37,025 nucleotides of DNA, taken from a virus (Duplodnaviria > Caudoviricetes). Positions 22,809 through 37,025 of this stretch are shown here, piece by piece (the first letter of the stretch is position 1; the number at the start of each line of letters is the position of its first letter). The notes below the pieces were generated by a model. The model worked only from the letters and a program-made list of their open reading frames with translations, was not told where the DNA came from and searched no databases. Made by a program: the position numbers and the translations under genes. The stretch lies in the IMG/VR virus record IMGVR_UViG_3300030207_001251, positions 1 to 37,025 of that record. One strand, 5' to 3'.

Positions 22809-22954
22809 TGAAAGACTGCGTTCACGTCTACATACTACCTGAGCCTAGTAAACAACTTGGTTCTGAATACAAAGCAAAGTGTAGTAAGTGTGGTAAACAA
22901 CAGTTACACAGAAACTATCACAGCAGTAATAATATCTGGAAGAGGCGAGGCTAA
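22808..22954 (+). CDS. 48-aa zinc-finger-like protein (CxH...CxxC; not in ORF track)
   Basis: GTG start overlapping the previous stop; ends where the two transcription arms converge. Confidence 0.5.
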   Translation: MKDCVHVYILPEPSKQLGSEYKAKCSKCGKQQLHRNYHSSNNIWKRRG

Positions 22955-23334
22955 AGACTTAACTCTTTGCTTGAGTCAAGACTTTTCTTGATTCGCATCT
23001 CTTCTTTTCTAATATGTTTTGTAAGGTCTAAGAATACATCTAGTTCCATTGTCACTAAATGCACGGCTACTTGTTCGTTCTTTTTATGTGTTTGGCATAC
23101 TACAGGTATCTTTCCGGTAGCATTGGCAGCTTTTCTAGCTTGGTCTACAGCCTTAAGTGTTCTGCTAGACACAACTTTACCTGCCTTGACTTCAAGTGCA
23201 AACTTAATAGTTTCAACATCAGGTACATCACCTGAGTGTCTTCCTGTCACTGGATTTCTTTGTGCATTAACTGCATCACCACCAAAAAACTCAGCCCATC
23301 TTCTCTCCCAGTTTTTCCATACGCTATTCTTCAT
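22951..23334 (-). CDS. Holliday junction resolvase-like PD-(D/E)XK nuclease
   Basis: WERRWA...PDV...LEVK motif spacing. Confidence 0.7.
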   Translation of the reverse strand: MKNSVWKNWERRWAEFFGGDAVNAQRNPVTGRHSGDVPDVETIKFALEVKAGKVVSSRTLKAVDQARKAANATGKIPVVCQTHKKNEQVAVHLVTMELDVFLDLTKHIRKEEMRIKKSLDSSKELSL

Positions 23335-23418
23335 AGTTCCTCCTTGGACAAATAGAATTTTTTTTAAGAATGTCTAATAAATATTATGGACAGTTTGGTT
23401 TGCATGAATTTAGAATGT

Positions 23419-23703
23419 TTAATTCTCAGAATGTATCACAACATTGTCCATAAATACAGGGGTAAGTGGACCAACGTATGAACCGTTCACATTATAATCA
23501 AAGTATTCCATGGCTTCATCGTGAGTCATACCATCTCTATCTACTAATACTTGTAAACACCTCTGTTTGTCGTATACAGCGATTGTTTTGTTGAATTGGT
23601 ACCCAACGCCTATGAAAGCCTCATCAAACCCGTCAGCGAGCATTATTTCAATGTCAGGGTTATCTCTCAAAAGAGTTTGATTTAGTGTTAGTGGTCTATC
23701 CAT
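23419..23703 (-). CDS. Conserved phage hypothetical protein
   Basis: ADGFDEAFIG...AVYD...EAMEYFDYNV.G.Y.G..TP pattern. Confidence 0.7.
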   Translation of the reverse strand: MDRPLTLNQTLLRDNPDIEIMLADGFDEAFIGVGYQFNKTIAVYDKQRCLQVLVDRDGMTHDEAMEYFDYNVNGSYVGPLTPVFMDNVVIHSEN

Positions 23704-23851
23704 CTGGGGATTCTAAAACTTTCATACCTAGGGCTATAATTCCTCCTGTACATCCCGTGGCTATCTCTGTATAGCCTTGCCACACACCAACAGCACTTAA
23801 TATACCTAAGACGATAATCGCTAAAAAAATCTGGGGTCTAAGTTTGCCCAT
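23696..23851 (-). CDS. 51-aa membrane protein with two hydrophobic segments (holin-like?; not in ORF track)
   Basis: MGKLRPQIFLAIIVLGILSAVGVWQGYTEIATGCTGGIIALGMKVLESPDG; AGGAG RBS; overlaps both neighbours. Confidence 0.6.
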   Translation of the reverse strand: MGKLRPQIFLAIIVLGILSAVGVWQGYTEIATGCTGGIIALGMKVLESPDG

Positions 23852-24270
23852 CATTTTAAACTCCTACACTTGTTTACCATTGCTAAGAATACTTCTTTGA
23901 CCTCTAATAATACACCATAACTTCTTTTACCGTTAGTATCGGTGTCACCCATGGGTACTCTTTCTTTGTTCCATGTAAGTTCTTGAAGTATCTGTGTTGG
24001 TATTATCATGGCACCAAACTTGTTGCCTTTACTATCAGCAAAGACATGGACTTGGTAGTCTGCTTCAGTAACATTTAGCCCTGTACTTTGACCTCTACGT
24101 TCATCGTATAGTTCCACAGCAATTTTCTTTGTGCGAGACCATATATCACGCTCAGTCTTTATCTCAACTAAGCGTCCAAAAAGTTGAGAGAACCAATGTT
24201 CCGACTCCTGACCAAACTCCAAGTCATGCCTAAAATCATAGTTTTGTTTAGAGTTACTTTCCAAACTCAC
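23851..24270 (-). CDS. PD-(D/E)XK-like nuclease-fold protein
   Basis: VEIKTE...IAVE...STGLNVTEADY pattern. Confidence 0.6.
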   Translation of the reverse strand: MSLESNSKQNYDFRHDLEFGQESEHWFSQLFGRLVEIKTERDIWSRTKKIAVELYDERRGQSTGLNVTEADYQVHVFADSKGNKFGAMIIPTQILQELTWNKERVPMGDTDTNGKRSYGVLLEVKEVFLAMVNKCRSLK

Positions 24271-25006
24271 ATATCTCCCAGAATGAACACCACTTCTGTG
24301 TGCAAGCCCAACTACCTTCTGGTGCAGGCATAAACACTTGATTGTTTATTCCAGATTTAACGTGTTCAATACGTTTGTTAACTCTGTCTTTGTGGTCTTG
24401 TGTCACCTCGGCGTGATGGTAGAAAGTCTTTGGTGTGTCCAAGTCTTGAACCACAGCCATTCCAACCTTGTCTACGTTAGCCATGTCTGCATACTTTACA
24501 AGTTGCACATCCCTAGTCAGGTCAGGTGTCACGTTTCGTTTCTTGACTTTGTTGTCGACAATAACGCCATCGACAGTGATAAAGTCAGCAAAGCCTTTGA
24601 ACTCTTCACCATCGTTATCAACTTGCACAAGTTCTACTTGCACTTCTTTAGCCTTGAACTTATCACCAAAGTCTTTGTGGTAAGTTGCAGCAAGTTTAGA
24701 TGTTCTATCCTTGCTCTTGTCTTTTGTAATGTCATCCTTCTCCCAATCAAACGTGTCGCTGTCCTGTTCTTTTTGATGAACATCAACAGCAAAGTCTACG
24801 AATTGACTTTGAGTTAGACCATTGTTTGTCTGTGCCTGCAGAGAGAAATGTTCGTTGGCAGCATTGTCAACGCTTGTCCCTCTGAGTACAGCACTACCCA
24901 TCTTCTCAGGGATACCTTCGACATACCTGAAGTAGTATTGCATACCACAAGTCATGTACTTTCGTATCTGAGATACAGATAGATAGCTTCTAATCGTACC
25001 TTTCAT
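24254..25006 (-). CDS. RecB/Cas4-like PD-(D/E)XK exonuclease
   Basis: LSVSQI..Y..C, GFAD, IVDNK, QLVKY and C-terminal C...C.....C (1+3 Cys, Fe-S type). Confidence 0.8.
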   Translation of the reverse strand: MKGTIRSYLSVSQIRKYMTCGMQYYFRYVEGIPEKMGSAVLRGTSVDNAANEHFSLQAQTNNGLTQSQFVDFAVDVHQKEQDSDTFDWEKDDITKDKSKDRTSKLAATYHKDFGDKFKAKEVQVELVQVDNDGEEFKGFADFITVDGVIVDNKVKKRNVTPDLTRDVQLVKYADMANVDKVGMAVVQDLDTPKTFYHHAEVTQDHKDRVNKRIEHVKSGINNQVFMPAPEGSWACTQKWCSFWEICEFGK

Positions 25007-25018
25007 GTAACCTCCTAA

Positions 25019-25312
25019 TCACACAATGTTTAGTTTATTTATTTGTTCTACACAGTAATCACAAGTCATTGGTTGTTCCCATTTGCATTTGCCTTTGGGT
25101 CCCCAAATACAACCTTTCATACCATGTAAATTCCTCAACCACTCTTCCATGTGTTCAAGCATTGTCATTTTTTCCCAGAATTTTTCCCAGCGTTCTTCAT
25201 CCTCGACAATTTCATCTTGAAAATATAATTGTTTGAACTCATCTGTGCACCATGCAAGACCAGCTTTTAACTGACCCATTGATTTCTCTTTGTCTGTAAA
25301 GTCTACTCCCAT
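25019..25312 (-). CDS. Hypothetical Cys-rich protein
   Basis: 97 aa, four C-terminal Cys. Confidence 0.6.
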   Translation of the reverse strand: MGVDFTDKEKSMGQLKAGLAWCTDEFKQLYFQDEIVEDEERWEKFWEKMTMLEHMEEWLRNLHGMKGCIWGPKGKCKWEQPMTCDYCVEQINKLNIV

Positions 25313-26325
25313 GGTAGTTCATCCCTCTTCTCTTGCCTCATGCTCTCAGTCTCACCAAGAACTACAAGCGTGCTCACCATCACATCTTTGAATCTATCTA
25401 CCACAGCAAAGTCAAACACTTGCTCCAGTTCATCCAAAGAAAAGTTAGATGTAATCATAGTCCTCATTCTTCTTGAGTACCTGTAATCTAATATCTCATA
25501 AAACAGAGACCTGACATAGTCAGTTGAGTATTCTCTGCCCAAGTCATCAATGATTAGATGCTTTACATTCTTAAGATGGTTTACATACTCATCATACTTA
25601 TCGGTGTCCATGTAGGACTTTACCTTTGATGCGAGTTCTGCTGATGTCATGTAGACAACCATTTCTTTTCTACCAATTATCCAAGAAACAGATGCTTTGG
25701 CAAGATGAGTCTTACCCACACCAACATTACCAAGCATAATTAGCCATGGACTTTTATGTCCACTTGCCCACTCAAATGCAGATTCTTTTGCAATCTTGCA
25801 CTCATCAGTCCTGAGTTCATAGTTATTAAACCTTTGGAACGTTGTCTCGCCTAGACCAGATACTTCCCAAAGATACTTACCGTAATCGGTCTTGTTAGAT
25901 TTACATACACAAGCAAACGCTTTACCAAAGTTTGGGTCACCAACAGGATAAGTTCCTGACAGCCAACCAGTCCCACCACATACACATACTGATGGTGACT
26001 TGAATGCTTTACCTGCATTAGCCTTTGCTCTTTCGTTATAGTCTTGGACATTCTTAACGTGTCTATCTGTAACTAAAATATCAAGTTGAGTTCTCACACT
26101 CTTTGGTAATCTCTTCCAAGGGATAGCAGGATACCCTGCCTCAACTGCTTCATTTGGTGTTAGATTTCCCGGAATGCAGGTCTCTATCAATTCCTCAGTA
26201 AATGCTTTGACTTCTTCTGGCGAGGTCATTGAGTTTGGAATCTTTAAACTTGTTCCCCGAACTATCGCTGAGTCTTCTTCCTCTTTGAGTCTTTTGACCA
26301 GTTGGTCGTATTTCATTTCTTTCAT
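25303..26325 (-). CDS. DnaC/IstB-like AAA+ helicase loader
   Basis: Zn motif CVCGGTGW..CVC, Walker A GNVGVGKT, Walker B IIDDLG, ITSN, VVDRF. Confidence 0.88.
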   Translation of the reverse strand: MKEMKYDQLVKRLKEEEDSAIVRGTSLKIPNSMTSPEEVKAFTEELIETCIPGNLTPNEAVEAGYPAIPWKRLPKSVRTQLDILVTDRHVKNVQDYNERAKANAGKAFKSPSVCVCGGTGWLSGTYPVGDPNFGKAFACVCKSNKTDYGKYLWEVSGLGETTFQRFNNYELRTDECKIAKESAFEWASGHKSPWLIMLGNVGVGKTHLAKASVSWIIGRKEMVVYMTSAELASKVKSYMDTDKYDEYVNHLKNVKHLIIDDLGREYSTDYVRSLFYEILDYRYSRRMRTMITSNFSLDELEQVFDFAVVDRFKDVMVSTLVVLGETESMRQEKRDELPWE

Positions 26326-26773
26326 ATTCTTTTGCCTTTCTTAGCCATGTCCTCAACCTCAAGTATGGGACAAATGTTTTTGGTTTTTTAGCCACCTCCC
26401 AGTAAGAACAAAACTCCTCAACAATATATTCTATGTTCTTATTTTTAAATTCGTCTTTGACAAATTGTATCTGTCTCTCTGTTAGATACTTAGTATCTTT
26501 AGTAACAAGTAACTTGTTACAGAAACTGTTGAATCTGTCTATCCATGTCTCTTCTGTCACCCTTTTGTCACCCTTTTTGTCACCCTTTATTTCATACACT
26601 TGAATGTTACCTCTTCCTGTTTTATTGCTTATTCTATCAACTAACCCATCAGCCATCATCACCTTTAACTTTCTTTGTACTGACCTCTTTGAGACACCGA
26701 CTGCATCTGAGATACCTGCAATAGATATCTCAGACTTGTCTTTAAGTATTGTTATGATTTTCTTTTCAATCAT
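26195..26773 (-). CDS. Replication initiator (N-terminal winged HTH)
   Basis: HTH SIAGISDAVGVSKRSVQRKL, internal iterons, C-terminal F..YW...LRTWLR; adjacent to the DnaC-like gene. Confidence 0.75.
   Translation of the reverse strand: MIEKKIITILKDKSEISIAGISDAVGVSKRSVQRKLKVMMADGLVDRISNKTGRGNIQVYEIKGDKKGDKRVTEETWIDRFNSFCNKLLVTKDTKYLTERQIQFVKDEFKNKNIEYIVEEFCSYWEVAKKPKTFVPYLRLRTWLRKAKEYERNEIRPTGQKTQRGRRLSDSSGNKFKDSKLNDLARRSQSIY
26555..26588. repeat. Three iteron-like direct repeats TGTCACCCTTT (putative origin)
   Basis: Copies at 26555, 26566 and 26578 inside the initiator gene, as in lambdoid origins. Confidence 0.65.
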
Positions 26774-26967
26774 AACTTTGCTTGTGTTGTCTTGACTTCA
26801 TCGACTTCAATGACTTCAATGAAATCAGATGTGCTTCTGTGCTGTGCATTGTCATCAATCTCGCTATGCGACATATCTTTAACTTTTTGTTCAGCTTCTT
26901 CTTTTGAATCTGCATCAACTTCAATAATTGCATAACTCATCTGACTTATGTTTACGTTGTATAACAC
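26770..26967 (-). CDS. Small hypothetical protein (IEVDADSKEEAEQKV motif)
   Basis: 65 aa, AGGAG RBS. Confidence 0.65.
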   Translation of the reverse strand: MLYNVNISQMSYAIIEVDADSKEEAEQKVKDMSHSEIDDNAQHRSTSDFIEVIEVDEVKTTQAKL

Positions 26968-26983
26968 GTTTTGCTCCTTTCTA

Positions 26984-27286
26984 TTAATCGTTTATTTCTT
27001 CAAGCATATCTTCGACAATACTTTTTATGTCAGCTTGTTCATCTTGCATTGCATCTAAAGCAGATTGCAAGCGTTCCTCGCCCCACATATTATCGAGAGA
27101 CTCAACTGCATCTCTTACTTTTTCAATTTCAGTTTCGGGTATTTCGTTATGATTTAACGCCTTACTGTACTTGATAGCAAAATCTACAATCACTTTCATC
27201 TCTTTTAAAAATGTTTGAATGTTGTTCACGTTTAACTCCTTTCTACGATTGGTTTTTAATTTGTTTAAAATCATCAATGTCTGCAC
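26984..27286 (-). CDS. Hypothetical protein (true start probably the GTG near 27229)
   Basis: AAGGAG RBS lies just before VNNIQTF. Confidence 0.6.
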   Translation of the reverse strand: MQTLMILNKLKTNRRKELNVNNIQTFLKEMKVIVDFAIKYSKALNHNEIPETEIEKVRDAVESLDNMWGEERLQSALDAMQDEQADIKSIVEDMLEEIND

Positions 27287-27422
27287 CAGTCACATTGTCT
27301 TCCTCACCAATTATTTTATCTAACCTTGAGGCTACTTTCTCTATTGCATCAGCATCATCTTCAGCCTCAACAATAATTGTCCTTTGCTTAGTTACATTAA
27401 CTGTAAAATTATATCCTTTCAT
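27243..27422 (-). CDS. 59-aa hypothetical protein (not in ORF track)
   Basis: MKGYNFTVNVTKQRTIIVEAEDDADAIEKV...; similar in pattern to 26770-26967. Confidence 0.6.
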   Translation of the reverse strand: MKGYNFTVNVTKQRTIIVEAEDDADAIEKVASRLDKIIGEEDNVTGADIDDFKQIKNQS

Positions 27423-27569
27423 TATCTTGTCTTCCTTTCTAACGAGGGGCAGGGAAATTTCCCAACCCCTCAGTTACTTAGTAAACGGACACAGGAATAA
27501 GGCTGTTAACTGTATCTCTACCGGAGAGTTACCTTATCGTTTTCTTGGAGGAACCTGTGCCCGATTAAA

Positions 27570-27782
27570 TTAATTAATTGGTTGTAGGTTTTCGATAGAG
27601 CCGGCATCTTCAAGTCTACTCATGAAGTCATCGATAGACTCCTTAGTAATCTTGATGTGAGTACCGACCTTGATTGACTTTATCTTGTTTTCTTTTATCA
27701 AGTCGTAAAGTCTGTTTCTACCTATACCCATTAGTTCTTTAGCCTCGAGGACTGTGTAAAGCATTTTATCCATTGTCTTCAC
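27570..27782 (-). CDS. Excisionase-like HTH DNA-binding protein
   Basis: LYTVLEAKELMGIGRNRLYDLIKENKIKSIKVG...I..ESIDDF. Confidence 0.8.
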   Translation of the reverse strand: MKTMDKMLYTVLEAKELMGIGRNRLYDLIKENKIKSIKVGTHIKITKESIDDFMSRLEDAGSIENLQPIN

Positions 27783-28314
27783 TCAATTCTCCAAGTAGTT
27801 CCTCAGCACCTAATACTGCTTTCCTAACTACTCTGGCTGCAGTTTCACTCTTCATGAAACCTGCTGATACTAATCCCTCACAGTGAGGTGCTAGTTCAAT
27901 CAGGGCTTTCACAGCAACCTGTCTTTCAATAGACCTGTTCCTGCCATCCACACTGCCACCTGATGAGGCAACAGGTACGGATACTTTTTCAGTAGATTCT
28001 ACTGCTTCTGCACCGTCAACTGGTTCCCATGACTGAATGTCATAGTAAAGTGTTCCTGTTCCACTTTGATTTATGGAAAGAACAGCAATACCTTTGGCTC
28101 CTACTGACAGTGCGTGAGGTGGGTTCCAGAACCCATTGACCTCTTCAAGAATTACTTGATTGAAGTTTCTGTCTCTAACAGGATATTTACCCTGCATCTT
28201 TACAGTTACCTCAACTGGTAAGTAAGTTGCCCGTTGTCCTTTCATCTCAGATACTGACAATTCAATAGTGTCATTCTCGTGAGCGTAAGGGTTGGACAAA
28301 TTTTCAGTTGTCAT
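27766..28314 (-). CDS. Hypothetical protein, possibly ssDNA-binding
   Basis: Beta-rich N-terminal domain, linker, RSIERQVAVK helix, acidic tail; function is a guess. Confidence 0.5.
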   Translation of the reverse strand: MTTENLSNPYAHENDTIELSVSEMKGQRATYLPVEVTVKMQGKYPVRDRNFNQVILEEVNGFWNPPHALSVGAKGIAVLSINQSGTGTLYYDIQSWEPVDGAEAVESTEKVSVPVASSGGSVDGRNRSIERQVAVKALIELAPHCEGLVSAGFMKSETAARVVRKAVLGAEELLGELSEDNG

Positions 28315-28339
28315 ATTAACTCCTTTAACTGATTATTAT

Positions 28340-28350
28340 TTACTAAAACG
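28340..28350 (-). repeat. Early-arm motif site 13 (CGUU^UUAGUAA)
   Basis: TTACTAAAACG on +; upstream of the AAGGAG RBS; no clear hairpin before it. Confidence 0.85.
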
Positions 28351-28365
28351 TTTTTTACTATACTC

Positions 28366-28590
28366 TTATTTACCATTCACTGCAACATCAAAATTATTTG
28401 TTTTGAGAATGCCGATGATTGGTATGTAGAAATCAGGGTTCACAATGATTGGTGAGTTGTGAATATCATTGGGGTCCTTGTATGCCCACTGTTTCTTATC
28501 AATGTTCTTGGCTATAAAACTTCTTGCCTCTGGGTTCTGTGATACCAGAGTTACAATCTCCTGTGTTTTATAAATAAATACTTGTTTCAT
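28366..28590 (-). CDS. Hypothetical protein
   Basis: 74 aa, GGGAG RBS. Confidence 0.6.
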   Translation of the reverse strand: MKQVFIYKTQEIVTLVSQNPEARSFIAKNIDKKQWAYKDPNDIHNSPIIVNPDFYIPIIGILKTNNFDVAVNGK

Positions 28591-28601
28591 AATTGCTCCC
28601 T

Positions 28602-28635
28602 AAAAAGACACGGTGACCCTGTTACAGGTCACCGT
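28602..28635 (-). terminator. Hairpin, possible intrinsic terminator
   Basis: ACGGTGACC...GGTCACCGT followed on - by GTCTTTTT. Confidence 0.5.
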
Positions 28636-28698
28636 TTTGCAAAAGTTCTAATAATGCAATGTCTTGGTTGAGGTTGACTAGAAAGTCACAAATTCATA

Positions 28699-28878
28699 TT
28701 ATTCTTTGAACTCGTCTACGTCAATACCAAACTCAGCAGCTTTCTCAATGAGGTCTTCTTCACCCCATCCTGTTAGCCCTTGCATTACGAGCATTTCTGT
28801 ATCCTCGTAACTTTCAAAACCTTTGTCACTAATTGCAGTAGTGATTGCTTCTGCTAAGCCTAATTTATCGATTGTCAT
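28699..28878 (-). CDS. Hypothetical acidic protein
   Basis: Start reassigned to the ATG after AGGAGG (MTIDKLG...). Confidence 0.65.
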   Translation of the reverse strand: MTIDKLGLAEAITTAISDKGFESYEDTEMLVMQGLTGWGEEDLIEKAAEFGIDVDEFKE

Positions 28879-28894
28879 TAAGCCTCCTTTGTTG

Positions 28895-28905
28895 TTACTA
28901 ATACG
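28895..28905 (-). repeat. Early-arm motif site 12 (CGUA^UUAGUAA)
   Basis: TTACTAATACG on +; between hairpins and the AGGAGG RBS. Confidence 0.85.
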
Positions 28906-29078
28906 TTTCATTCCCTATTCCCACCCTAGGAACGGGAATGGGAATGGAATGGTGTTCCTTGTTCCATCCCTAGGGTCAGGAACAGGAACAGCATACGTTG
29001 AAGTTCCAAGTTCTGATACTAGTCAGAGAACTCAGAACTTCATAGGTTTTTATAGAAGAGGGCATAGTTGATAGTTAT

Positions 29079-30281
29079 TTAGTTAAGTCTGAAACCACAC
29101 TTTGGGCATGACTGCACTATGTTTGGTTCAGATTGTGGCGTAATTTGTGGTGGCACAAAGTTTCCATAAGCAACGTTAGTTGATTGAGCAATATTATTAT
29201 CAGTCAATCTTTTAAGAGTTGCTTGGTCGTAAGTGCCTCGTTGAACAATGTCGTTGCCATCCATCTGTGCTTGTATGTTTGCACTTGTGTTAGATGAATA
29301 CAACATTGAGTTAGGTCTAACCGTATTGTGTATCTTGGAAAGAGCACTTACATCCTTGATGTAGGACATACTTTCTTTCTCAAAATTAGCACCTTGGTCT
29401 TCCTCATCAACAAGCATTACACCATCCAATGCAGATGCCTCGTTGACTAGACCAATCAATTTCATGATGTAGTTTCTAGCCACCAAGTCTCTGCTCATGG
29501 ACAAAGGTATCTTCTGATGAACATTCAAAGAATACTTGAATTGAGTATCTTCAAGAGTCATCACTGGAATACCTAGTTCATAAAGCCATGGTGTTTCTGC
29601 TTCAAAGATTTCCACCTTTGTTTTCCTTTGTAGGTTTTTCATTGCGTTGATGCCATCAATCTCTTGCAAGACTGGAGTTGGCATTGTTACTTCAACACCG
29701 TGCTTTGACTGAGGTCTTGGAATAATCTCATTATTGACGACATAATTTATGCCTTCTGGTGGGATTACATTCCTCAGCATTTCCACAGCAGTTTCAAAGT
29801 CTCCCTTTACCATAGGTAATACAGCCTCAACCGTTGTGCCTTGGTGGTAGTTAGGGTCTTTGTGTTTAATCGTATTCCTCACACCATCTTTGAAACTAAC
29901 GGTGTAATTTCTAGTCTTAATCACAGCTTCCTTTGAAACAGCAATGAGTTGTTTCTCACCTGCATTGAACCTACCTGCAACAGTAGGGTCGTTTCTCTTT
30001 TCAGTAGTCCTGAAGAGAGTATAGATGTCGGTTGGGTCTTTGAAACCACCTCCGTCATCTTGCACCTTAAGTTGTGCAGGTCTGTTGCCATCCTTTGTAA
30101 GTTCTACAATACAAGAGGTTGGCGTAACAGCACCTTCAACGTAGCCCAAGAATTCATCGAACACATTGGTCACTAGTTCAACTGCGTGTCTCCATGCAGG
30201 GACAGAACCAAATAGTTCTTTGAGTCCTTTGATGTCTACTTCAAATGCAGATTTAATTCTGCTTACAACTTTCTTAGTCAT
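29079..30281 (-). CDS. GHKL (HATPase_c) ATPase with C-terminal CxxC
   Basis: ELVTNVFD (N box), DDGGGF (G1), GRFNAGEK (G2), GTTV; start moved to the ATG after AGGAGG. Confidence 0.8.
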   Translation of the reverse strand: MTKKVVSRIKSAFEVDIKGLKELFGSVPAWRHAVELVTNVFDEFLGYVEGAVTPTSCIVELTKDGNRPAQLKVQDDGGGFKDPTDIYTLFRTTEKRNDPTVAGRFNAGEKQLIAVSKEAVIKTRNYTVSFKDGVRNTIKHKDPNYHQGTTVEAVLPMVKGDFETAVEMLRNVIPPEGINYVVNNEIIPRPQSKHGVEVTMPTPVLQEIDGINAMKNLQRKTKVEIFEAETPWLYELGIPVMTLEDTQFKYSLNVHQKIPLSMSRDLVARNYIMKLIGLVNEASALDGVMLVDEEDQGANFEKESMSYIKDVSALSKIHNTVRPNSMLYSSNTSANIQAQMDGNDIVQRGTYDQATLKRLTDNNIAQSTNVAYGNFVPPQITPQSEPNIVQSCPKCGFRLN

Positions 30282-30304
30282 AATTTCCTCCTTAATTATG
30301 CCCT

Positions 30305-30315
30305 CTACTAAAACG
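30305..30315 (-). repeat. Early-arm motif site 11 (UAUCGUU^UUAGUAG)
   Basis: CTACTAAAACG on +; preceded on - by hairpin GAGCAGGAG-UAACU-CUCCUGCUC. Confidence 0.85.
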
Positions 30316-30331
30316 ATATTGAGCAGGAGAG

Positions 30332-30568
30332 TTACTCCTGCTCCCACTCTAACTTTCCCTGCTCCCACATTAACTCTTTCTTCCATTCTAAGGCTCTCTC
30401 ATATTCACCATCTATTTCTTCCTGTGTGAATTTCCACAATGGTTTTTCTCCCATGTGTAAACCTTTTATCTCATCAATGACTGTACTCATATCATTCAAC
30501 TCCCAACCCTCTGACCACATCTCAAGTATGAGGTCAGTCTTCTTTTCATTTTCTTGTAAGTCAAACAT
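30332..30568 (-). CDS. Hypothetical acidic, Trp-rich protein
   Basis: 78 aa, TAATG overlap; stop codon sits in the hairpin loop. Confidence 0.7.
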   Translation of the reverse strand: MFDLQENEKKTDLILEMWSEGWELNDMSTVIDEIKGLHMGEKPLWKFTQEEIDGEYERALEWKKELMWEQGKLEWEQE

Positions 30569-30855
30569 TACTTCACCTCCTCTATGTCAAGTTCAGCAAA
30601 GTCTCCTGCACCTGACTTGATGAATTGAAGTTTTACCTCAAGACCCTCATAGTCTTTTACATCAAGAGTTTCATCTTTCTTGATTTCAATCAATGCACAC
30701 TTAGTCATGTCAGTCTCCTGACCTTGAGCCAAATCATCACCATCTCCCCAATAAAATACTTCTTCTAGTATTCCTTTAGGTAATGGAATGTTTGAAACAA
30801 TCTCATAGTGCCTAGTTTGTTGTTGGTACTCTTCAAGTTTGTATGTTTTACCCAT
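30568..30855 (-). CDS. Hypothetical protein, paralog of 31480-31800
   Basis: Shared Y..EE..Q.TRHY.I.SN.PL...ILE..Y..G pattern. Confidence 0.75.
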   Translation of the reverse strand: MGKTYKLEEYQQQTRHYEIVSNIPLPKGILEEVFYWGDGDDLAQGQETDMTKCALIEIKKDETLDVKDYEGLEVKLQFIKSGAGDFAELDIEEVK

Positions 30856-30880
30856 ATTAATTCCTCCTTCATAGGTTGTT

Positions 30881-30891
30881 TTACTAAAACG
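30881..30891 (-). repeat. Early-arm motif site 10 (UAUCGUU^UUAGUAA)
   Basis: TTACTAAAACG on +; hairpin GAGGAGGC...GCCTCCTC at 30897-30918. Confidence 0.9.
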
Positions 30892-30951
30892 ATATTGAGG
30901 AGGCGTTTAAGCCTCCTCTTTTTCTTTGGGTGTCATGATGAATTGTTCTTG

Positions 30952-31107
30952 CTACTTTTCATCCACGCTTTCAGTAACGTGTGTCCAACCCTCTTGTTTA
31001 GCCAACTCTTTAAGTGCTGGCAGACAAGCTATGTAATGACTTTCACTTTCAAATGTAGCCACTTGCTCTGCTGAAAGCCATTTTTCAAAGTAAACCCTAA
31101 TCATCAT
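30952..31107 (-). CDS. 51-aa hypothetical protein (not in ORF track)
   Basis: MMIRVYFEKWLSAEQVATFESESHYIACLPALKELAKQEGW...; GGAGG RBS. Confidence 0.6.
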   Translation of the reverse strand: MMIRVYFEKWLSAEQVATFESESHYIACLPALKELAKQEGWTHVTESVDEK

Positions 31108-31279
31108 CCACCTCCTCTACTGTAGTTACCACCCATTGATAATCAACTGGCATATTTCCACCACCAATTTTCTCAATTTCAGTTCTTGCCTCATCCCAAA
31201 TATCTTCGGTCTCCAGTTCAAAAGTATCTTCATACTCTTCAGTGATAGTCCACTTGACTGTGTATTTCTTAGTCATCAT
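31097..31279 (-). CDS. Hypothetical acidic protein
   Basis: 60 aa, GGAGG RBS. Confidence 0.65.
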   Translation of the reverse strand: MMTKKYTVKWTITEEYEDTFELETEDIWDEARTEIEKIGGGNMPVDYQWVVTTVEEVDDD

Positions 31280-31427
31280 TACCCTCCTTCAGTTGCTTGT
31301 TGAGTTCATCTATTTTTTTCTGAACCCATACAACACCACGAGTATTGATAAGACTGTGAAGATTGAAAACATCAACCTCTTCTGAGATTTGTGCCATCTC
31401 TTCCAATTTTCTTTTAACATTTGCCAC
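31269..31427 (-). CDS. Hypothetical protein (52 aa)
   Basis: Start reassigned to the GTG after AGGAGG (MANVKRKLEE...). Confidence 0.65.
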   Translation of the reverse strand: MANVKRKLEEMAQISEEVDVFNLHSLINTRGVVWVQKKIDELNKQLKEGNDD

Positions 31428-31452
31428 TTTACCTCCTTGCAAACATTGTTTA

Positions 31453-31463
31453 TTACTAAAACG
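31453..31463 (-). repeat. Early-arm motif site 9 (UAUCGUU^UUAGUAAU)
   Basis: TTACTAAAACG on +; hairpin AGGAAGAGGC-AUAA-GCCUCUUCCU upstream on -. Confidence 0.9.
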
Positions 31464-31479
31464 ATATACAGGAAGAGGC

Positions 31480-31800
31480 TTATGCCTCTTCCTTTCTGAC
31501 TGCAAATTCACCACTACAAGTCTGGCTGTCATCACCATACTCTGTGCCTGTAAATTTAACAGTTACTTTTAAATCTTTTGGAAGGCTGTCATAACCTTGG
31601 TCATCCATCTCTTGTCTTACTGCCTCTGTGATGTCACTTTCTACATTGGCATCAGCATCGTCAAGTGACCCTACACCTAAATAGTATGTTGCCTCAAGAA
31701 TTTCTGAGTTTAAAGGATAGTTAGAGTCAATGGCATAATGCCTTGTATCTTGAGACCATTCTTCAACCCAATATTTTTTTACTGTTTTTTCTTCACTCAT
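31480..31800 (-). CDS. Hypothetical acidic protein, paralog of 30568-30855
   Basis: 106 aa, AGGAGG RBS. Confidence 0.75.
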   Translation of the reverse strand: MSEEKTVKKYWVEEWSQDTRHYAIDSNYPLNSEILEATYYLGVGSLDDADANVESDITEAVRQEMDDQGYDSLPKDLKVTVKFTGTEYGDDSQTCSGEFAVRKEEA

Positions 31801-31826
31801 ATTTATTCCTCCTATATGAATTATTA

Positions 31827-31837
31827 TTACTAAGACG
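31827..31837 (-). repeat. Early-arm motif site 8 (UAUCGUC^UUAGUAAU)
   Basis: TTACTAAGACG on +; hairpin at 31844-31871. Confidence 0.9.
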
Positions 31838-31853
31838 ATATTGAGCAGGAGGG

Positions 31854-32045
31854 TTACATTATCCCCCTGCTTTCTTTAATATCTATGATTTCCTCAATGT
31901 AATCTATAAATCTTAAATCTCTAATACTCATTCCACCATTTTCTTGACACAATTCTCTCAGTAATAACCTGAGATTTTTCATAGACCAATATTTATATTT
32001 TTCTAATTCTTTGTCGTCTGGGTGTAATTTTCTATATTCATTCAT
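31854..32045 (-). CDS. Hypothetical protein
   Basis: 63 aa, AGGAGG RBS. Confidence 0.7.
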   Translation of the reverse strand: MNEYRKLHPDDKELEKYKYWSMKNLRLLLRELCQENGGMSIRDLRFIDYIEEIIDIKESRGIM

Positions 32046-32070
32046 ACTTTACCTCCTATATGAATTATTA

Positions 32071-32081
32071 TTACTAAAACG
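32071..32081 (-). repeat. Early-arm motif site 7 (UCGUU^UUAGUAAU)
   Basis: TTACTAAAACG on +; hairpin CTCACAG...CTGTGAG at 32085-32109. Confidence 0.9.
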
Positions 32082-32118
32082 AGACTCACAGGAGGGGCTT
32101 GTCTGTGAGCCAAGGTTG

Positions 32119-33189
32119 TTAGGCTAGAGCAGGCTCTAGCACTGTGTTTGACAGATTTGCAACATCCCAACCGAATTTCTCAAACTCAGTAGCCCTGTCG
32201 TAGTCTTCTAAGTCTTGAGATGCCCTTGTTACAGCGTTTGTAAGTCCCCATTTAGTTGTGTCACCACCTTTGATTAAGTGGTTCAATACTGAGTCTTTCT
32301 CATCCTCTGTAAACCTAAACTGTTTCTGTATTATTTCAACAGCATCGATAGGCTTTGCTATCTCAGTTTCTGTAGTTTCCCTGAGTTTTCCCAACACATT
32401 ATTGAACCCTTCATTAGACAACACATTCCTCACTACATCTTGCACCTGACCAACTAAAGCCTCACTTGTTTTGTTCAGTGTGTCTCTGCTGAGTAAGTCT
32501 GTGATGTCATGTGATGCACCAATGTGTCTTCTTCTGAAAGATGTTTCTGCAATCATACCGTTCATGCAAACTAATCTTTCGATGAATGCTTGAACATTTA
32601 CAGAACCATATCCAACTTCTGAATTACTTACGATTACACCACCTCTGACAACGTCACCCTTCTCAATCTCACCTGTAAGTTTGTCAGTTACAGCTTTGAT
32701 GTAGAGTTTTTTCTCAGTAACATTCGATGAGATAATTTCTAGTTGCTCATCAAACATTACAGGCAACACAGCCTCGGCGACATCTTCATTATCAAAAGTC
32801 AGATACTTGTTAGACAAGTCAGCCCTCATCAAATCCCAGACAGTTGAACCGTCTGCTTGATAAGTTCTTATCATTCTTTTGTTTTGAGTTTGTCCTAACC
32901 AGTTGTTAACATTTTCTGCTAACAATACTGGGTTGTTGTTCATTACTCTTTCGTAGTAAGCGTAAGGAATTTGCAACCTTGTTGCTAGTTGTCTGTGTGC
33001 AGTGGATGTAATCTCCATTTGCTTTGAGTCATCAATACTCATTAAGACTGGTGCATTAGTTGTTACATCGTCTTGTTCAACTGGAAGTAATTGCATACTC
33101 CTGCTGTCCACGACCATGTCAACTTTTTTCTCTGCTTGGTCTGTAATTTTCTTTGCTAACTCATTTATGTTTAATCCTAATTTTGGCAT
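32119..33189 (-). CDS. DUF932-like phage/plasmid protein
   Basis: AHRQLATRLQIP, LS.KY..FDN, SNSEVGYGS, ERLVCMNGM, RRRHIG, TKWGLTNAVT. Confidence 0.8.
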   Translation of the reverse strand: MPKLGLNINELAKKITDQAEKKVDMVVDSRSMQLLPVEQDDVTTNAPVLMSIDDSKQMEITSTAHRQLATRLQIPYAYYERVMNNNPVLLAENVNNWLGQTQNKRMIRTYQADGSTVWDLMRADLSNKYLTFDNEDVAEAVLPVMFDEQLEIISSNVTEKKLYIKAVTDKLTGEIEKGDVVRGGVIVSNSEVGYGSVNVQAFIERLVCMNGMIAETSFRRRHIGASHDITDLLSRDTLNKTSEALVGQVQDVVRNVLSNEGFNNVLGKLRETTETEIAKPIDAVEIIQKQFRFTEDEKDSVLNHLIKGGDTTKWGLTNAVTRASQDLEDYDRATEFEKFGWDVANLSNTVLEPALA

Positions 33190-33222
33190 CTATGCCTCCT
33201 TTTGATGCCCCTCAATTTTTTA

Positions 33223-33233
33223 TTACTAAAACG
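33223..33233 (-). repeat. Early-arm motif site 6 (UAUCGUU^UUAGUAAU)
   Basis: TTACTAAAACG on +; hairpin AGGGGCA...TGCCCCT at 33243-33260. Confidence 0.9.
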
Positions 33234-33258
33234 ATACAATCGAGGGGCATGATTGCCC

Positions 33259-33420
33259 CTAATTTTCTTTCTTTTCAAAAGTAATTTCTACTCTGTTTTC
33301 ACCAATTAATAGTATTGTTTCAATTACTAATTCTTGATTTCTTAAGTCGTGCATTTTATCTTCAAATGGAATTAACTCACCATTATCATGATAGTAATAT
33401 ACATACTCTATATTAGTCAT
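33259..33420 (-). CDS. 53-aa hypothetical protein (not in ORF track)
   Basis: MTNIEYVYYYHDNGELIPFEDK...; AGGAGG RBS. Confidence 0.65.
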   Translation of the reverse strand: MTNIEYVYYYHDNGELIPFEDKMHDLRNQELVIETILLIGENRVEITFEKKEN

Positions 33421-33436
33421 TATTCCTCCTTATTTA

Positions 33437-33447
33437 TTACTAAAACG
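33437..33447 (-). repeat. Early-arm motif site 5 (UAUCGUU^UUAGUAAU)
   Basis: TTACTAAAACG on +; hairpin GAGCAGGG...CCCTGCTC at 33461-33482. Confidence 0.9.
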
Positions 33448-33470
33448 ATACCTAGCAACCGAGCAGGGGG

Positions 33471-33710
33471 TTAGCCCTGCTCTGGATTGTTTACCTCTTC
33501 GATTGTGTCAACGTCTGGCGTGTCTGGTTTCTCAGTCTTGTTTTTTATCAAGCCTAGATTTATGTAGTCCATTGCAGTTCTACCGAACCAACCTTGCATA
33601 GTCCAAGCTAATCCAGTGTCAACTAAATGTTGCCAAGCCTCAAAATATTCTTCTTTGTTTGTTGGTTCTAACATTCTTTCGGCTAGATTTATTGCTCTTA
33701 AGTTATCCAT
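33471..33710 (-). CDS. Conserved phage hypothetical protein
   Basis: AWQHLVDTGLAWTMQGWFGRTA motif; AGGAGG RBS. Confidence 0.75.
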   Translation of the reverse strand: MDNLRAINLAERMLEPTNKEEYFEAWQHLVDTGLAWTMQGWFGRTAMDYINLGLIKNKTEKPDTPDVDTIEEVNNPEQG

Positions 33711-33734
33711 AATATCCTCCTATATGAATTGTTT

Positions 33735-33745
33735 TTACTAAGACG
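33735..33745 (-). repeat. Early-arm motif site 4 (CGUC^UUAGUAA)
   Basis: TTACTAAGACG on +; hairpin GCAGGGT...ACCCTGC at 33746-33764. Confidence 0.9.
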
Positions 33746-33754
33746 GCAGGGTCA

Positions 33755-33838
33755 TCAACCCTGCTCTTTTAAGATTGTGAAAATAGAATTATCACTGACA
33801 ACTATATTTCCTGTATCATTAATAGACACTTCAATCAT
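33755..33838 (-). CDS. 27-aa peptide occupying its own motif-bounded unit (not in ORF track)
   Basis: MIEVSINDTGNIVVSDNSIFTILKEQG; AGGAGG RBS; stop in hairpin loop. Confidence 0.6.
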   Translation of the reverse strand: MIEVSINDTGNIVVSDNSIFTILKEQG

Positions 33839-33864
33839 TTTAACCTCCTTGATTAAAGTTAGAG

Positions 33865-33875
33865 TTACTAAAACG
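33865..33875 (-). repeat. Early-arm motif site 3 (UCGUU^UUAGUAA)
   Basis: TTACTAAAACG on +; hairpin GAGGGGCA...TGCCCCTC at 33883-33902. Confidence 0.9.
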
Positions 33876-33909
33876 AGGTTGGGAGGGGCATCCCTGCCCC
33901 TCTCACTAT

Positions 33910-34269
33910 CTAAAGATAAAGTGGTGGTGGGTATCCTAAACCTCCTGCTTTAGCTTTACCCCACAATAAAAGTCTTATGTAGTAAAATGCTTTTTCATCT
34001 TTGCCACCGATATGCCACATATCAATATCTTCTTTATCTAAACCATCAACTGGGTCGTAATTCTTTCCGTCTTTCCAGTTGTAAATTGTAGCAACTGTTT
34101 TGTCAGGAAATTCAAACACCCATTCGCATAGTATTTTTTTATCCAAACTCTCGCCCAAATGTTCTTTTCCAAACACTGAAACAAGTTTGTCATAGGATAT
34201 ATTTATATGCCCTTTGAAACTACATCCAAAGTCGTTATGAGTTGGTTTGATTCTGATTGCTGTCAACAT
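33910..34269 (-). CDS. Conserved phage hypothetical protein
   Basis: SYDKLVSVFG...EW...VATIYNWK...WHIGG; start moved to the ATG after AGGAGG. Confidence 0.75.
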   Translation of the reverse strand: MLTAIRIKPTHNDFGCSFKGHINISYDKLVSVFGKEHLGESLDKKILCEWVFEFPDKTVATIYNWKDGKNYDPVDGLDKEDIDMWHIGGKDEKAFYYIRLLLWGKAKAGGLGYPPPLYL

Positions 34270-34299
34270 GATTAAATCCTCCTTCATCATGATTATTTT

Positions 34300-34310
34300 T
34301 TACTAAAACG
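34300..34310 (-). repeat. Early-arm motif site 2 (CGUU^UUAGUAA)
   Basis: TTACTAAAACG on +; hairpin AACGGTTGG...CCAACCGTT at 34313-34344. Confidence 0.9.
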
Positions 34311-34353
34311 GCAACGGTTGGAGGCTTGCGAAACCCCAACCGTTACAATCAAA

Positions 34354-34509
34354 CTAAACTTTGTTAGTCTGAACTCTCTCACAGAACATACATTTAGTTT
34401 TTGCAGTTCCATCGTCCAACCTTTCAATGATTTCACTGACTGGGTGTGAACAATTGAATTGCTCCATTGTGAATTGTTCTGGGTGATTATTAACTATCCA
34501 TGATGCCAT
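34354..34509 (-). CDS. 51-aa zinc-finger-like protein (CxH...CxxC), first gene of the early arm (not in ORF track)
   Basis: MASWIVNNHPEQFTMEQFNCSHP...KCMFCERV; GGAGG RBS. Confidence 0.65.
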   Translation of the reverse strand: MASWIVNNHPEQFTMEQFNCSHPVSEIIERLDDGTAKTKCMFCERVQTNKV

Positions 34510-34530
34510 GGTTCCTCCATTGCTAATTGT

Positions 34531-34541
34531 TTACTAAGACG
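34531..34541 (-). repeat. Early-arm motif site 1 (UUUCGUC^UUAGUAA), proximal cis site
   Basis: TTACTAAGACG on +; hairpin CCAAGCGAC...GTCGCTTGG at 34545-34572. Confidence 0.9.
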
Positions 34542-34700
34542 AAACCAAGCGACAATTTGGAGGGTCGCTTGGCGTTGTCATTGATTCTATCGTTTCGGAT
34601 TATTAGTCTTTGCATTTAATCCAAGCGTTGCCACTTGGAACCATCCACCATCAATAGGTTCGGTTGCATTCCTGACTTTCACAGTTCATCAGCTAGTAAT
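34531..34700 (-). ncRNA. Hammerhead-ribozyme-like RNA (type I topology, expanded non-canonical stem II region)
   Basis: - strand: AUUACUAG (34700-34693), CUGAUGA (34692-34686), 89-nt structured insert, GAAA (34596-34593), CGAUAG (34592-34587), hairpin, UUUCGUC^UUAGUAA. Stems I and III pair; the base of stem II is not canonical. Confidence 0.7.
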
Positions 34701-35214
34701 TTTTTATGAAATAATCTAGTCTTCCAACGTTTCTGACTCTTCACAGATTTCTTAGGTTCTGAACTGCGTAATCCAATCGCATAGAGTAGTTTTCCGATGT
34801 CAGTATTTTAGTCAATCTCAACCAGTGAAATATAAAAAATAGTGACTTGTTTAACATTCGATTATTTATTTGTAAGTGACTTTTTGCATTCTGTCACGAT
34901 GTGGTTTCTCTGGCTCCCCGAACTCGACTCTCACGATTGGAGGCATCCCAGTTGACTACTTAGGCTCATTAAAGGATTTTAGGTATCAATCCTCTGGTAA
35001 CTATCGATTCACCTTCCTCGGGATGAGTAGTCCCTTCCAGCAACCTGCGAGGTTCGGGGTCTGAGAGGTGAGCCTAAGCTACTTTGCTTTGACCCCTCAT
35101 CTTTGGTGTTCTACTCAACCTACTTACCGAACCCAACCTGTTTCAATCCTAGTGTATTTGTTGGGGCTTGCTAGCCCTAACTAACCTGAGATTTAACTTC
35201 ATCAACTAACCACT
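34701..35214 (-). ncRNA. Long structured non-coding leader upstream of the hammerhead-like core
   Basis: No RBS-led ORF; several hairpins and crossing long-range complementarities; starts just after the promoter. Confidence 0.6.
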
Positions 35215-35220
35215 AAAATC

Positions 35221-35250
35221 ATTCTAACACCATATAAAATAATATGTCAA
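35221..35250 (-). promoter_or_regulatory. Sigma70-type promoter for the early arm
   Basis: - strand TTGACA (35250-35245), 18-bp spacer ending in TGT (extended -10), TAGAAT (35226-35221). Confidence 0.8.
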
Positions 35251-35318
35251 CACCTAATTTAAAACGGGATAATGTGGCACATTCATTTAAATATATTTAC
35301 AACCTGATAAAATAGTAA

Positions 35319-35837
35319 ATGACTATGAGCAGGAAAATACAATTAGATAATAAAAAGATAGATTTAATAAAGCAGGATATAGAACGGCTTGGACTACACC
35401 CTACAAGTGCCATAATTAGACGCTGTGGGGTTTCTGAGTCTGTGGCTATGGGTTGGCTCCGTTTCGGTGAAAAAGTCCGTGTAACATTAGATACAGAAAC
35501 AGATACAGATACTATAGATACAGTAACAGTAACAGATACAAAGAACCTGAATCCCAGTGACAGATACAAGCAACTGACACTAAAACTTCATGATACTGTT
35601 ACAGAGGCTGTAACTGAGTTTGAGGCTTTGCAACTAACGGAATTAACGACTGCACAGAATGAGGCTGTTAAGAGTAAAAATAGCCAGTGGCTCCTGTCTA
35701 AAAAATACCCTGACAGATACGGTGACAATAAGAACCAGACGACAATAGACGACCAAGCAAACGCCCTAATCCAAGCATTAATAAATATAAATGTGCCAAT
35801 CTCCGAAGATAAAAAGCCAATAGAGGACACGGCGTAA
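35319..35837 (+). CDS. Putative terminase small subunit
   Basis: N-terminal HTH (RRCGVSESVAMGWL), helical middle, WLLSKKYPDRYG motif; upstream of terL. Confidence 0.65.
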   Translation: MTMSRKIQLDNKKIDLIKQDIERLGLHPTSAIIRRCGVSESVAMGWLRFGEKVRVTLDTETDTDTIDTVTVTDTKNLNPSDRYKQLTLKLHDTVTEAVTEFEALQLTELTTAQNEAVKSKNSQWLLSKKYPDRYGDNKNQTTIDDQANALIQALININVPISEDKKPIEDTA

Positions 35838-36215
35838 CGCTATATAAAACGCCGTAACATCATAAAGGACAAAATTCCAAACAGTTGGGAATCATTCCAA
35901 ACTAAAGAGGGACATTCTCAAAAGCATTCTAAATAACAAAATGGGAACGAATGGGAACGTAAGGCACAATGAGGCATGATACCCCCAAAGCCCCAAAGTC
36001 CCGTCTATGAGCCTCTGAGAGCCTCTGAGAGGTGCGTATGATTCGGATTCGGAAAAAAAAATGCGTGTGGTGGGGTGGATGGGTGGTGGTGGTTGATGGG
36101 TGGTCTGGTGTCTGTCTGTGTCTGTGTGTCGGTGTCAGTGTGTCGGCTGCAAGGGGGGTGGTTCTTGTGGTCGCTTGCTGGTCTGTGTCTGTGGTACTAC
36201 CTCCTGTAAATTTTA
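35838..36215. repeat. Non-coding region of short tandem duplications plus a G/T-rich tract (candidate packaging/terminus region)
   Basis: AATGGGAACG x2, CCCCAAAG x2, GAGCCTCTGA x2, ATTCGG x2, then a nearly A-free tract at about 36062-36195. Confidence 0.6.
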
Positions 36216-36231
36216 TGCTAAAATGTGTCTC

Positions 36232-37025
36232 ATGATACATGAACAACGTGATGCCCTATTCAGTGCCATAGGTTACACACCTACGGCTGCACAGCTTGAT
36301 ATTCTCAATGATGATGCTAGATTCAAACTGGTTGCCGGTGGCGTGAGAGCAGGTAAGTCCAATCTTGGTGCTATGTATATGTTTGAGAAGATAATGTCCA
36401 AGATTGTAGAAGACCCTGATGCTGCTTCGGGCAGTGTCTATTGGCTAGTAGCTGCTGATTACGAAAGAACTAGGGGTGAGTTTGACTATCTTGGAGATGC
36501 CTTCAACAGGCTAGGTGTAATTAAACGTGCCACGAGGCAGGTTGACCCCGGATACATCGAGGTGTCCGTTGGTTCTAAGAACCTAAAACCGTTGGTAATC
36601 AAGACTAAATCTGCGACTGACTACAGAAAACTTGCGATGGAAGCCCCGATGGGCATCGTTGCTTGTGAGGCTTCGCAGTTAGACCAAGAAAGTTATTGGC
36701 GATTGATGGAGAGAGTGGCAGAAAAGCGTGGTTGGGTATTCCTAGAAGGTACTTTTGAAGGTAGTCTAGGATGGTACCCCCAACAATTTACGTCATGGCA
36801 ATCACCGGGTATCCAAAATTTAGAGAGTGCAAAAAGTTTTTCACTACCTACATGGACTAATACGCATATATTTCCGTTGGGAGAGCACGACCCTGAAATA
36901 GAAAAGATGAGAAATGAGCATTCCGAGGAGTGGTTTAATGAACGTGTCGCCGGAATCCCGAGTCCTCCGAGTGGATTGGTGCATCCGTCATTCAATGTAA
37001 ACGTTCATGTGAGAGAAGTTGAGTA
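36232..37025 (+). CDS. terL: Terminase large subunit, N-terminal ATPase part (joins 2-715; about 469 aa in total; missed by ORF track)
   Basis: MIHEQRDALFSAIGYTPTAAQ (Q motif), Walker A AGGVRAGKS, YWLVA, Walker B region GIVACEA; open to the window end. Confidence 0.9.
   Translation, partial: MIHEQRDALFSAIGYTPTAAQLDILNDDARFKLVAGGVRAGKSNLGAMYMFEKIMSKIVEDPDAASGSVYWLVAADYERTRGEFDYLGDAFNRLGVIKRATRQVDPGYIEVSVGSKNLKPLVIKTKSATDYRKLAMEAPMGIVACEASQLDQESYWRLMERVAEKRGWVFLEGTFEGSLGWYPQQFTSWQSPGIQNLESAKSFSLPTWTNTHIFPLGEHDPEIEKMRNEHSEEWFNERVAGIPSPPSGLVHPSFNVNVHVREVE
36928..37025. repeat. Terminal direct repeat, copy 2
   Basis: Identical to 2-99. Confidence 0.95.

Follow-up and report, generated by a model that had tools for sequence, protein, structure and literature searches.

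The window analyzed here, that is, the whole 37,025-nucleotide stretch of IMG/VR virus record IMGVR_UViG_3300030207_001251 (Caudoviricetes), is a 37 kb phage record with repeated ends, and its minus strand carries a real and unusual RNA system, consisting of a predicted non-coding leader RNA and an array of 13 short intergenic target sites. The leader holds both halves of a hammerhead-type core, each next to a guide arm complementary to one half of the target motif, and it very probably recognizes the sites by base pairing. Judging from sequence comparison, we consider it fairly probable that the leader ribozyme, once released, would cut the early polycistron in trans at most of these sites, with turnover, and that this would be its main function. 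With somewhat less assurance, we lean towards the full proposal that the RNA is a protein-free, multiple-turnover RNA endonuclease with its own substrate array and a new multi-helix architecture, which splits the phage operon into mRNAs of one gene each, is able to join their ends again as circles, and sets the cassette grammar by which the genome's genes are shuffled.

The motif CGTHTTAGTAR (H, any base other than G; R, purine) occurs 13 times in the whole window, always on the minus strand and always between genes, while 100 dinucleotide shuffles gave a mean of 0.07 copies and a maximum of 1, and the plus strand of the window has none. A preliminary description of this DNA, made from the sequence alone, had listed the same 13 coordinates, and a recount returned its base tallies: H is U at nine sites, C at three and A at one, the full 6-bp stem III sequence TATCGT stands at six of the 13 sites, and 30305 is the sole copy ending in G. 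Its statement that every copy is intergenic and precedes a ribosome-binding site also held, with the spacing refined: the Shine-Dalgarno (SD) sequence starts 6-22 nt 3' of the motif, and the predicted cut is followed by the start codon after 24-41 nt. A hairpin of -12 to -22 kcal/mol lies upstream of 12 of the 13 sites, the exception being 28340 (-2.4). The sites, and one hairpin with a degenerate site, are listed below.

34531..34541, minus strand: site 1 (cis), H=C; predicted cut 3' of 34538
34300..34310, minus strand: site 2, H=U
33865..33875, minus strand: site 3, H=U
33735..33745, minus strand: site 4, H=C
33437..33447, minus strand: site 5, H=U
33223..33233, minus strand: site 6, H=U; before the DUF932 gene
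32071..32081, minus strand: site 7, H=U
31827..31837, minus strand: site 8, H=C
31453..31463, minus strand: site 9, H=U
30881..30891, minus strand: site 10, H=U
30305..30315, minus strand: site 11, H=U; last base G, forming a G.U wobble with the arm
28895..28905, minus strand: site 12, H=A
28340..28350, minus strand: site 13, H=U; no upstream hairpin
28599..28635, minus strand: hairpin and degenerate site; relative L166 has a near-full site at the same place

The only strong promoter-like site within 27000-36300 was found at 35250-35221, and none in that region is tied to any of the 13 motifs. The longest ATG open reading frame in the leader has 17-38 codons across the five types of relatives defined below. 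The promoter and the parts of the predicted leader are as follows.

35221..35250, minus strand: sigma70-like promoter, 11/12 match to the consensus, extended -10; all five types have a similar one ahead of the leader
34531..35214, minus strand: predicted non-coding leader RNA of about 690 nt, its start placed from the promoter
34693..34699, minus strand: 5' guide arm, the strand for stem I and complementary to TTAGTAA; pairs with site 1 at a probability of 0.54-0.99
34686..34692, minus strand: core half C3-A9 (CUGAUGA); the 3-8 pair covaries among relatives
34597..34685, minus strand: structured insert in place of stem II, with a CUG/CAG helix, GGAAUG, a UGCA helix and a GCAA hairpin
34588..34596, minus strand: core half G12-A13-A14 and 3' guide arm ACGAUA (stem III strand)
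34577..34579, minus strand: invariant GAC pairing with GUC of the first site, favored in folds; in 13/13 A-C versions
34545..34572, minus strand: hairpin before the first (cis) site

The arm and core words were located where the preliminary description had placed them: TTACTAG (34699-34693) directly abuts CTGATGA (34692-34686), and GAAA-CGATAG stands at 34596-34587. A second GAAACG, not mentioned there, lies at 34733-34728. Arms and core together appeared in 0 of 20000 leader shuffles, in a test designed post hoc. This bears on the alternative that the motif is a double-stranded DNA operator, stoperator or phage promoter whose complementarity to the leader is incidental. Mycobacteriophage stoperators are likewise asymmetric, oriented, intergenic repeats, and genes for helix-turn-helix (HTH) proteins lie downstream of the array; nevertheless we give this alternative hardly any credence, since the split reverse complement around the core letters was not met in the 20000 shuffles, shifts register together with its targets among the relatives, and is accompanied by no promoter consensus overlapping the sites.

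The 5' 500-600 nt of the leader (34700-35214) are almost wholly different between phages with 95-99% identical proteins, and this region consists of interchangeable blocks with a GC content of 41-47%, no open reading frame and no Rfam match. For the first 330 nt, folding is not more stable than in shuffled sequences (z -0.07 to -1.5). Group I/II intron and RNase P readings of this 5' part were dropped by eye, as it is not conserved across types; in the window, the leader and the relatives searched, there was also no match to group I/II introns, RNase P or large ornate RNAs in Rfam, and no transfer-messenger RNA or tRNA call.

Relatives were gathered with the DUF932 protein, both terminase subunits and leader patterns, and yielded 16 distinct versions of the leader 3' domain, in carriers whose terminase, where present, is 87-100% identical. 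We sorted the versions into five types, the 13 close versions making up types A-C and the divergent ones types D and E.

Type A: the window, L123, L205 and L320; core CUGAUGA or CUGAAGA
Type B: L121, L124, L125, L143, L173 and L253; core GUGAACA
L292: a type B body with core CUGAAGA
Type C: L149 and L249; core UUGAAAA
Type D: L127 and L294
Type E: L200, with L217 identical

The array and leader were not found in terminase relatives at 38-58% identity (L346-L426) where upstream DNA was present; the sequences of the two relatives at 81% (L201 and L202) do not extend upstream. Pattern scans with short core words returned chance matches only (119 loci), a second pattern scan returned 119 loci of which only L528 and L539 were real, both of known types, and a further one returned 37 stretches and no new type. 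A search model (R1) recovered type E at 71 bits and missed both type D loci; it gave no further match in 70 loci and none in 151 sampled Dehalococcoidia genomes, blanks that are weak because of the two missed loci. An annotated phage collection gave no match, and the sequencing runs that were listed included no RNA run. On the sequences at hand, the system appears confined, so far, to one phage clade.

In type E, an extra site copy lies upstream of the promoter in both carriers (in L217 on the minus strand, about 40 nt upstream), and after the first site comes a complement of it that could fold the site away. On the opposite strand upstream of the terminase, L389 and L379 (52% terminase identity) have a repeated pre-gene element of their own, an AT-rich stretch plus a long SD before 7-9 small genes, with neither hairpins nor leader RNA. 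Upstream of the terminase in L385, an 8-mer occurs eight times, mostly between genes and partly palindromic, and looks operator-like.

Across the 13 A-C versions, U4, G5, A6, A9, G12, A13, A14 and A15.1 are invariant, and the only core positions that vary are 3, 7 and 8. Position 7 is U or A, and the 3-8 pair is G-C in six versions, C-G in five and U-A in two, being broken in none. Natural hammerheads have a C3-G8 pair that covaries to U3-A8 (PMC3088659), and an active G3-C8 variant is mentioned in the available part of PMC3884650; an initial view of the GUGAACA cores as a loss of the hammerhead was dropped, these cores being G3-C8 swaps. The order C3 U4 G5 A6 N7 G8 A9 with the 3-8 pair stands directly 3' of the stem I strand in types A-D, G12 A13 A14 is followed by A15.1-U16.1 and stem III at all 13 window sites, and CCGAAA is kept in 15/15 distinct A-D versions and in E. 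At the level of sequence, the relatives support hammerhead-type catalysis. The earlier identification of CUGANGA...GAAA as the hammerhead core is thus upheld comparatively, with arms and both core halves kept in 16/16 distinct versions and covariation at 3-8, but not as a canonical core, given that stem II is missing.

The position of stem II is occupied by an 89-nt multi-helix insert, which reaches about 280 nt in relatives and is built of a CUG/CAG helix, an invariant GGAAUG, a covarying helix (UGCA/UGCA, UGAA/UUCA, UGCU/AGCA) and a GCAA-capped hairpin; in type D, the CUG/CAG helix closes about 190 extra nt. A 39-pair model of the insert, drawn from the same sequences it is scored on, has 98% of its cells paired and 7 pairs with two-sided change, against 25-44% for slid controls. 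Judged by this comparison the insert is a real structure, and it holds candidate GNRA-type loops, a partner for which was not found.

The correspondence between arms and targets was compared across types with a target filter requiring T at position 3, a pyrimidine at position 6, RGTAR and an SD, which left positions 1, 2, 4 and 5 as the only free tests. The A-C set comprised 106 distinct contexts, including three probable chance matches; position 1 is C in 105 and position 5 is T in 104, and position 4 (H) is T in 59, C in 36, A in 11 and G in none. Types A-C share a single register with one variable base unpaired, positions 15.1-15.3 being paired at 13/13, 15/15 and (16, 16 and 15)/16 rows. 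In type D, the 5' arm is one base shorter (its last base is gone) and the 3' arm is one A longer, and in the targets position 5 is T in 14/19 and position 1 is C in 3/19. In type E, the 5' arm is two bases shorter and the 3' arm has an extra AG; among its six targets, position 4 is C in five and T in one, both pairing with G, position 1 is C in none, and positions 5, 6 and 7 vary once each, the change at position 7 being a G.U-compatible G. The arm base for position 1 is G in A-C and A in D and E. A register test, which includes one chance row each in B, C and E, puts H at position 4 in A-C, 5 in D and 6 in E. This test is partly circular because AC always meets GT; what it shows independently is that the 5' arm, at a distance of 100-300 nt, loses an equal number of bases, and that the freed target bases vary. 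The idea raised earlier that arms and motif covary in related phages is therefore borne out for arm length and target variability, which shift together in D and E, and not for position 1, which mostly loses pairing with no compensatory swap.

In the mechanism that we favor, transcription would start from the promoter at 35250, and a first cut at 34538 would release the leader. The invariant GAC would tuck the cleaved 3' tail onto the hairpin and so free the 3' arm, and the released RNA would then pair with the other sites over 10-13 bp, a binding weak enough to permit turnover. The early message would be cut 3' of the unpaired H at each site, leaving products with a 5'-OH about 33 nt before the start codon and a 3' end formed by the hairpin with a cyclic phosphate; these pieces may be stabilized, or their decay may be timed. 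The insert would replace stem II and supply tertiary bracing. Folding in cis gives a well-populated stem I between the arm and site 1. GAC and H=C at site 1 are found in 13/13 A-C versions, with H=C in about one third of all sites; from the folds we read GAC as a device that tucks the cleaved tail away and frees the 3' arm for other sites, and it could equally keep site 1 uncut. The computed binding of the arms (stem I -3.8 to -5.8 and stem III -1.1 to -6.0 kcal/mol) would suit turnover and would be marginal at the weakest sites.

A number of observations weigh against this mechanism. Stem II is absent, a point not raised in the preliminary description, A10.1 facing C11.1 in all versions (A34685/C34597 in the window); stems II of 1 bp or closed by U-U are known (PMC3088659), and none is like this insert. 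The Rfam search with Infernal-type models that the preliminary description had suggested found no hammerhead match (E<=5 for the window; E<=10 for the leader and nine relatives), and because stem II and the Rfam match both fail, the RNA should not be filed as a member of the hammerhead family. In type E, two hairpins separate C3 from U4 in the core, and the 3-8 covariation amounts to only two independent double changes, among close kin. That H is never G, as claimed earlier, holds in 132/132 copies from the window and relatives, and is weak evidence because the neighboring positions are also poor in G (0/139 at +1). Stem III has a probability of 0.0 in the cis fold because the GAC before the hairpin pairs with the site's GUC, a pairing that RNAalifold also chooses; the fold constrained to a hammerhead is about 7 kcal/mol worse (-38.5 vs -45.9), and stem III amounts to only -1.1 to -2.7 kcal/mol at 6/13 sites. 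In type D, 16.1 pairs at only 13/19 sites (C at 5 and A at 1), mismatches that would be allowed only under the looser NHH rule to which the NUH cleavage rule was later widened (PMC3884650, available in part). Position 1 in D and E is mostly A (11/19 and 4/6), mismatching the arm, and only six type E sites are known. Sites are common to several genomes, so that the counts are not independent. In addition, an invariant ACUGU after the core can pair with GU of the targets (AUAGU; seen in the D fold), and could provide a non-hammerhead alternative in such folds.

Several of these points also count in favor of a leader that pairs with the sites without itself cutting, either as a guide or scaffold for a host or phage nuclease or by acting on the nascent transcript (antitermination at the hairpins, translation control), with the core letters serving as a structural turn. 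The lack of stem II, folds that favor non-hammerhead pairings and the imperfect fit of D and E agree with such a role, as does the hairpin before 12/13 sites, two of these hairpins scoring as terminator-like. Most of the hairpins, however, are set several bases away from the U-run, unlike intrinsic terminators, and a non-catalytic guide leaves unexplained why U4, G5, A6, A9, G12, A13, A14 and A15.1 are invariant in exact hammerhead geometry. We regard it as unlikely, while giving it some real weight.

Near-identical phages have their genes in different orders, and it is the motif that forms the joints. In a survey of 164 junctions from 16 loci, 24 of the 30 upstream flank families seen in at least two loci had at least two downstream partners. 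Base-linkage counts on 84 junction types showed that H is common to 74/81 pairs with the same upstream flank, to 29/45 pairs with the same downstream flank and to 40% of unrelated pairs, and that the last base of the motif follows the downstream flank in 45/45 pairs, so that exchange falls mostly between H and the motif end. No reverse transcriptase was found among the window proteins (38 scanned against Pfam and 28 against PHROGs), and shuffling is therefore taken as short-homology recombination plus selection for whole cassettes, as for the PeSLs of T4-type phages (PMC2839356 and PMC4122927, both available in part). Separately, a cassette at 1740-1843 of L121, about 100 nt long, contains two sites and a hairpin but shows no evident SD or open reading frame.

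If the hammerhead were real but cut only the first site in cis, the other copies could be duplicates of the leader 3' end, kept as PeSL-like recombination joints or as a signal recognized by a protein. The swapping of cassettes at the motif described above fits this alternative, as do the PeSL cassettes that shuffle T4-type phage genes (PMC2839356, in part) and the dominance of stem I with the first site in the fold. We think it improbable, because in the downstream copies precisely the bases that pair are conserved, variation falls at H, only wobble changes are tolerated and shifts accompany those of the arms in D and E, and because it is at the cis site that GAC blocks stem III. More improbable still is cutting and rejoining as the main reaction, by ligation to circular single-gene mRNAs or to shuffled transcripts. 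Every cassette starts and ends with complementary halves of one site, so that a site is restored whichever 3' and 5' ends are joined, which makes circles or shuffled transcripts conceivable; natural hammerheads religate to an extent of about 10% (PMC3884650, in part), and the genomes swap at or just after the predicted cut (H with the upstream flank, last base with the downstream flank). On the other hand, H follows the downstream flank above background too, no reverse transcriptase was found, and DNA shuffling is more simply explained as microhomology recombination.

As for the setting, Pfam and PHROGs matches place structural genes on the plus strand (capsid PF25209, terminase phrog_2), and replication genes and a series of small genes without known function on the minus strand. 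Among cellular genomes, the terminase has its closest matches mostly in Dehalococcoidia and Chloroflexota (38-49% identity, 20/21 loci), from which a Chloroflexota host is our guess. The following neighboring features were noted.

32119-33189, minus strand: DUF932 gene (PF06067), with site 6 just upstream
22951-27782, minus strand: replication block downstream of the array, with HTH proteins, an IstB/DnaC-like ATPase, a PD-(D/E)XK nuclease, which could serve short-homology recombination, and a RusA-like resolvase
29079-30281, minus strand: gene for 400 amino acids, with no match in PDB, Pfam or PHROG; its N-terminus, judged by eye, has motifs that we take to be GHKL-ATPase-like
33755-33838, minus strand: 27-codon open reading frame for a tiny peptide, kept in many relatives; an SD and a hairpin of its own and sites on both sides make it a complete cassette
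28905-29060, minus strand: 150-nt intergenic stretch of stacked inverted repeats ahead of site 12, absent from L121, L125 and L143

The preliminary description knew of no natural system of this kind, and one ribozyme with many genomic substrates was likewise not found in the literature searched, which was mainly titles and abstract openings with few subscription papers and no supplements; even leaving catalysis aside, that literature yielded no RNA whose two-part guides match 13-20 sites of the operon it belongs to. In a 2019 review, available in part, small ribozymes are portrayed as cutting themselves in cis, and genomic ones that cleave in trans as still being sought (PMC6765202). Cutting the early message by one multi-site hammerhead would thus be a job for which no natural hammerhead was found in the same literature, and the leader is a candidate trans ribozyme for which substrates can be named, arm variants exist in nature and the bond to be cut is predicted. 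If the trans-cleaving reading is true, an RNA enzyme would replace a protein processing nuclease in a modern phage, the hammerhead fold would be wider than thought (stem II replaced and the junction sliding by up to two bases), there would be an explanation for RNAs of this kind escaping descriptor and Rfam searches, and the leader would offer a naturally evolved trans-acting scaffold.

In phage T7, early RNA is processed by RNase III at intergenic signals, and T4 RegB likewise cuts the early message. The present system would share with both the cutting of an early polycistron at repeated intergenic signals, whereas those enzymes are proteins and recognition here would be by RNA base pairing. 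RNase P RNA is a natural trans-acting RNA enzyme (PMC6765202, in part); it hydrolyses tRNA-like shapes with a protein subunit, while the chemistry predicted here is different and no Rfam match to it was obtained. Permuted group II ribozymes that make circles are the subject of PMC8637638, and no likeness of the leader system to them was found. The PeSL cassettes are repeated intergenic stem-loops in a hypervariable early region (PMC2839356, in part) and, like the present sites, act as joints at which genes are shuffled; they contain sigma70 promoters and terminators, whereas the sites here have no promoter and have a cognate complementary RNA. With type I hammerheads (PMC3088659) the leader shares the order stem I strand-CUGANGA-GAAA-stem III-NUH-stem I, the 3-8 covariation, a free N7 and an H that is never G, and it differs in having no stem II pair, an insert of 89-280 nt, no Rfam match, one core for 13-20 matching sites and register shifts between types. 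In the discontinuous hammerhead Clec2, as reviewed in the available part of PMC6765202, enzyme and substrate strands are also far apart in one transcript, with one site in a mammalian 3' untranslated region, compared with many sites and predicted turnover here. Finally, clusters of complete cis hammerheads surround single genes in prophages (PMC3088659, in part on this point), with the same proposed outcome, in which long transcripts become single-gene or operon-length mRNAs, and with changing gene content between sites; in those clusters each junction has a whole ribozyme, whereas here each junction has an 11-nt substrate and the one enzyme strand lies in the leader.

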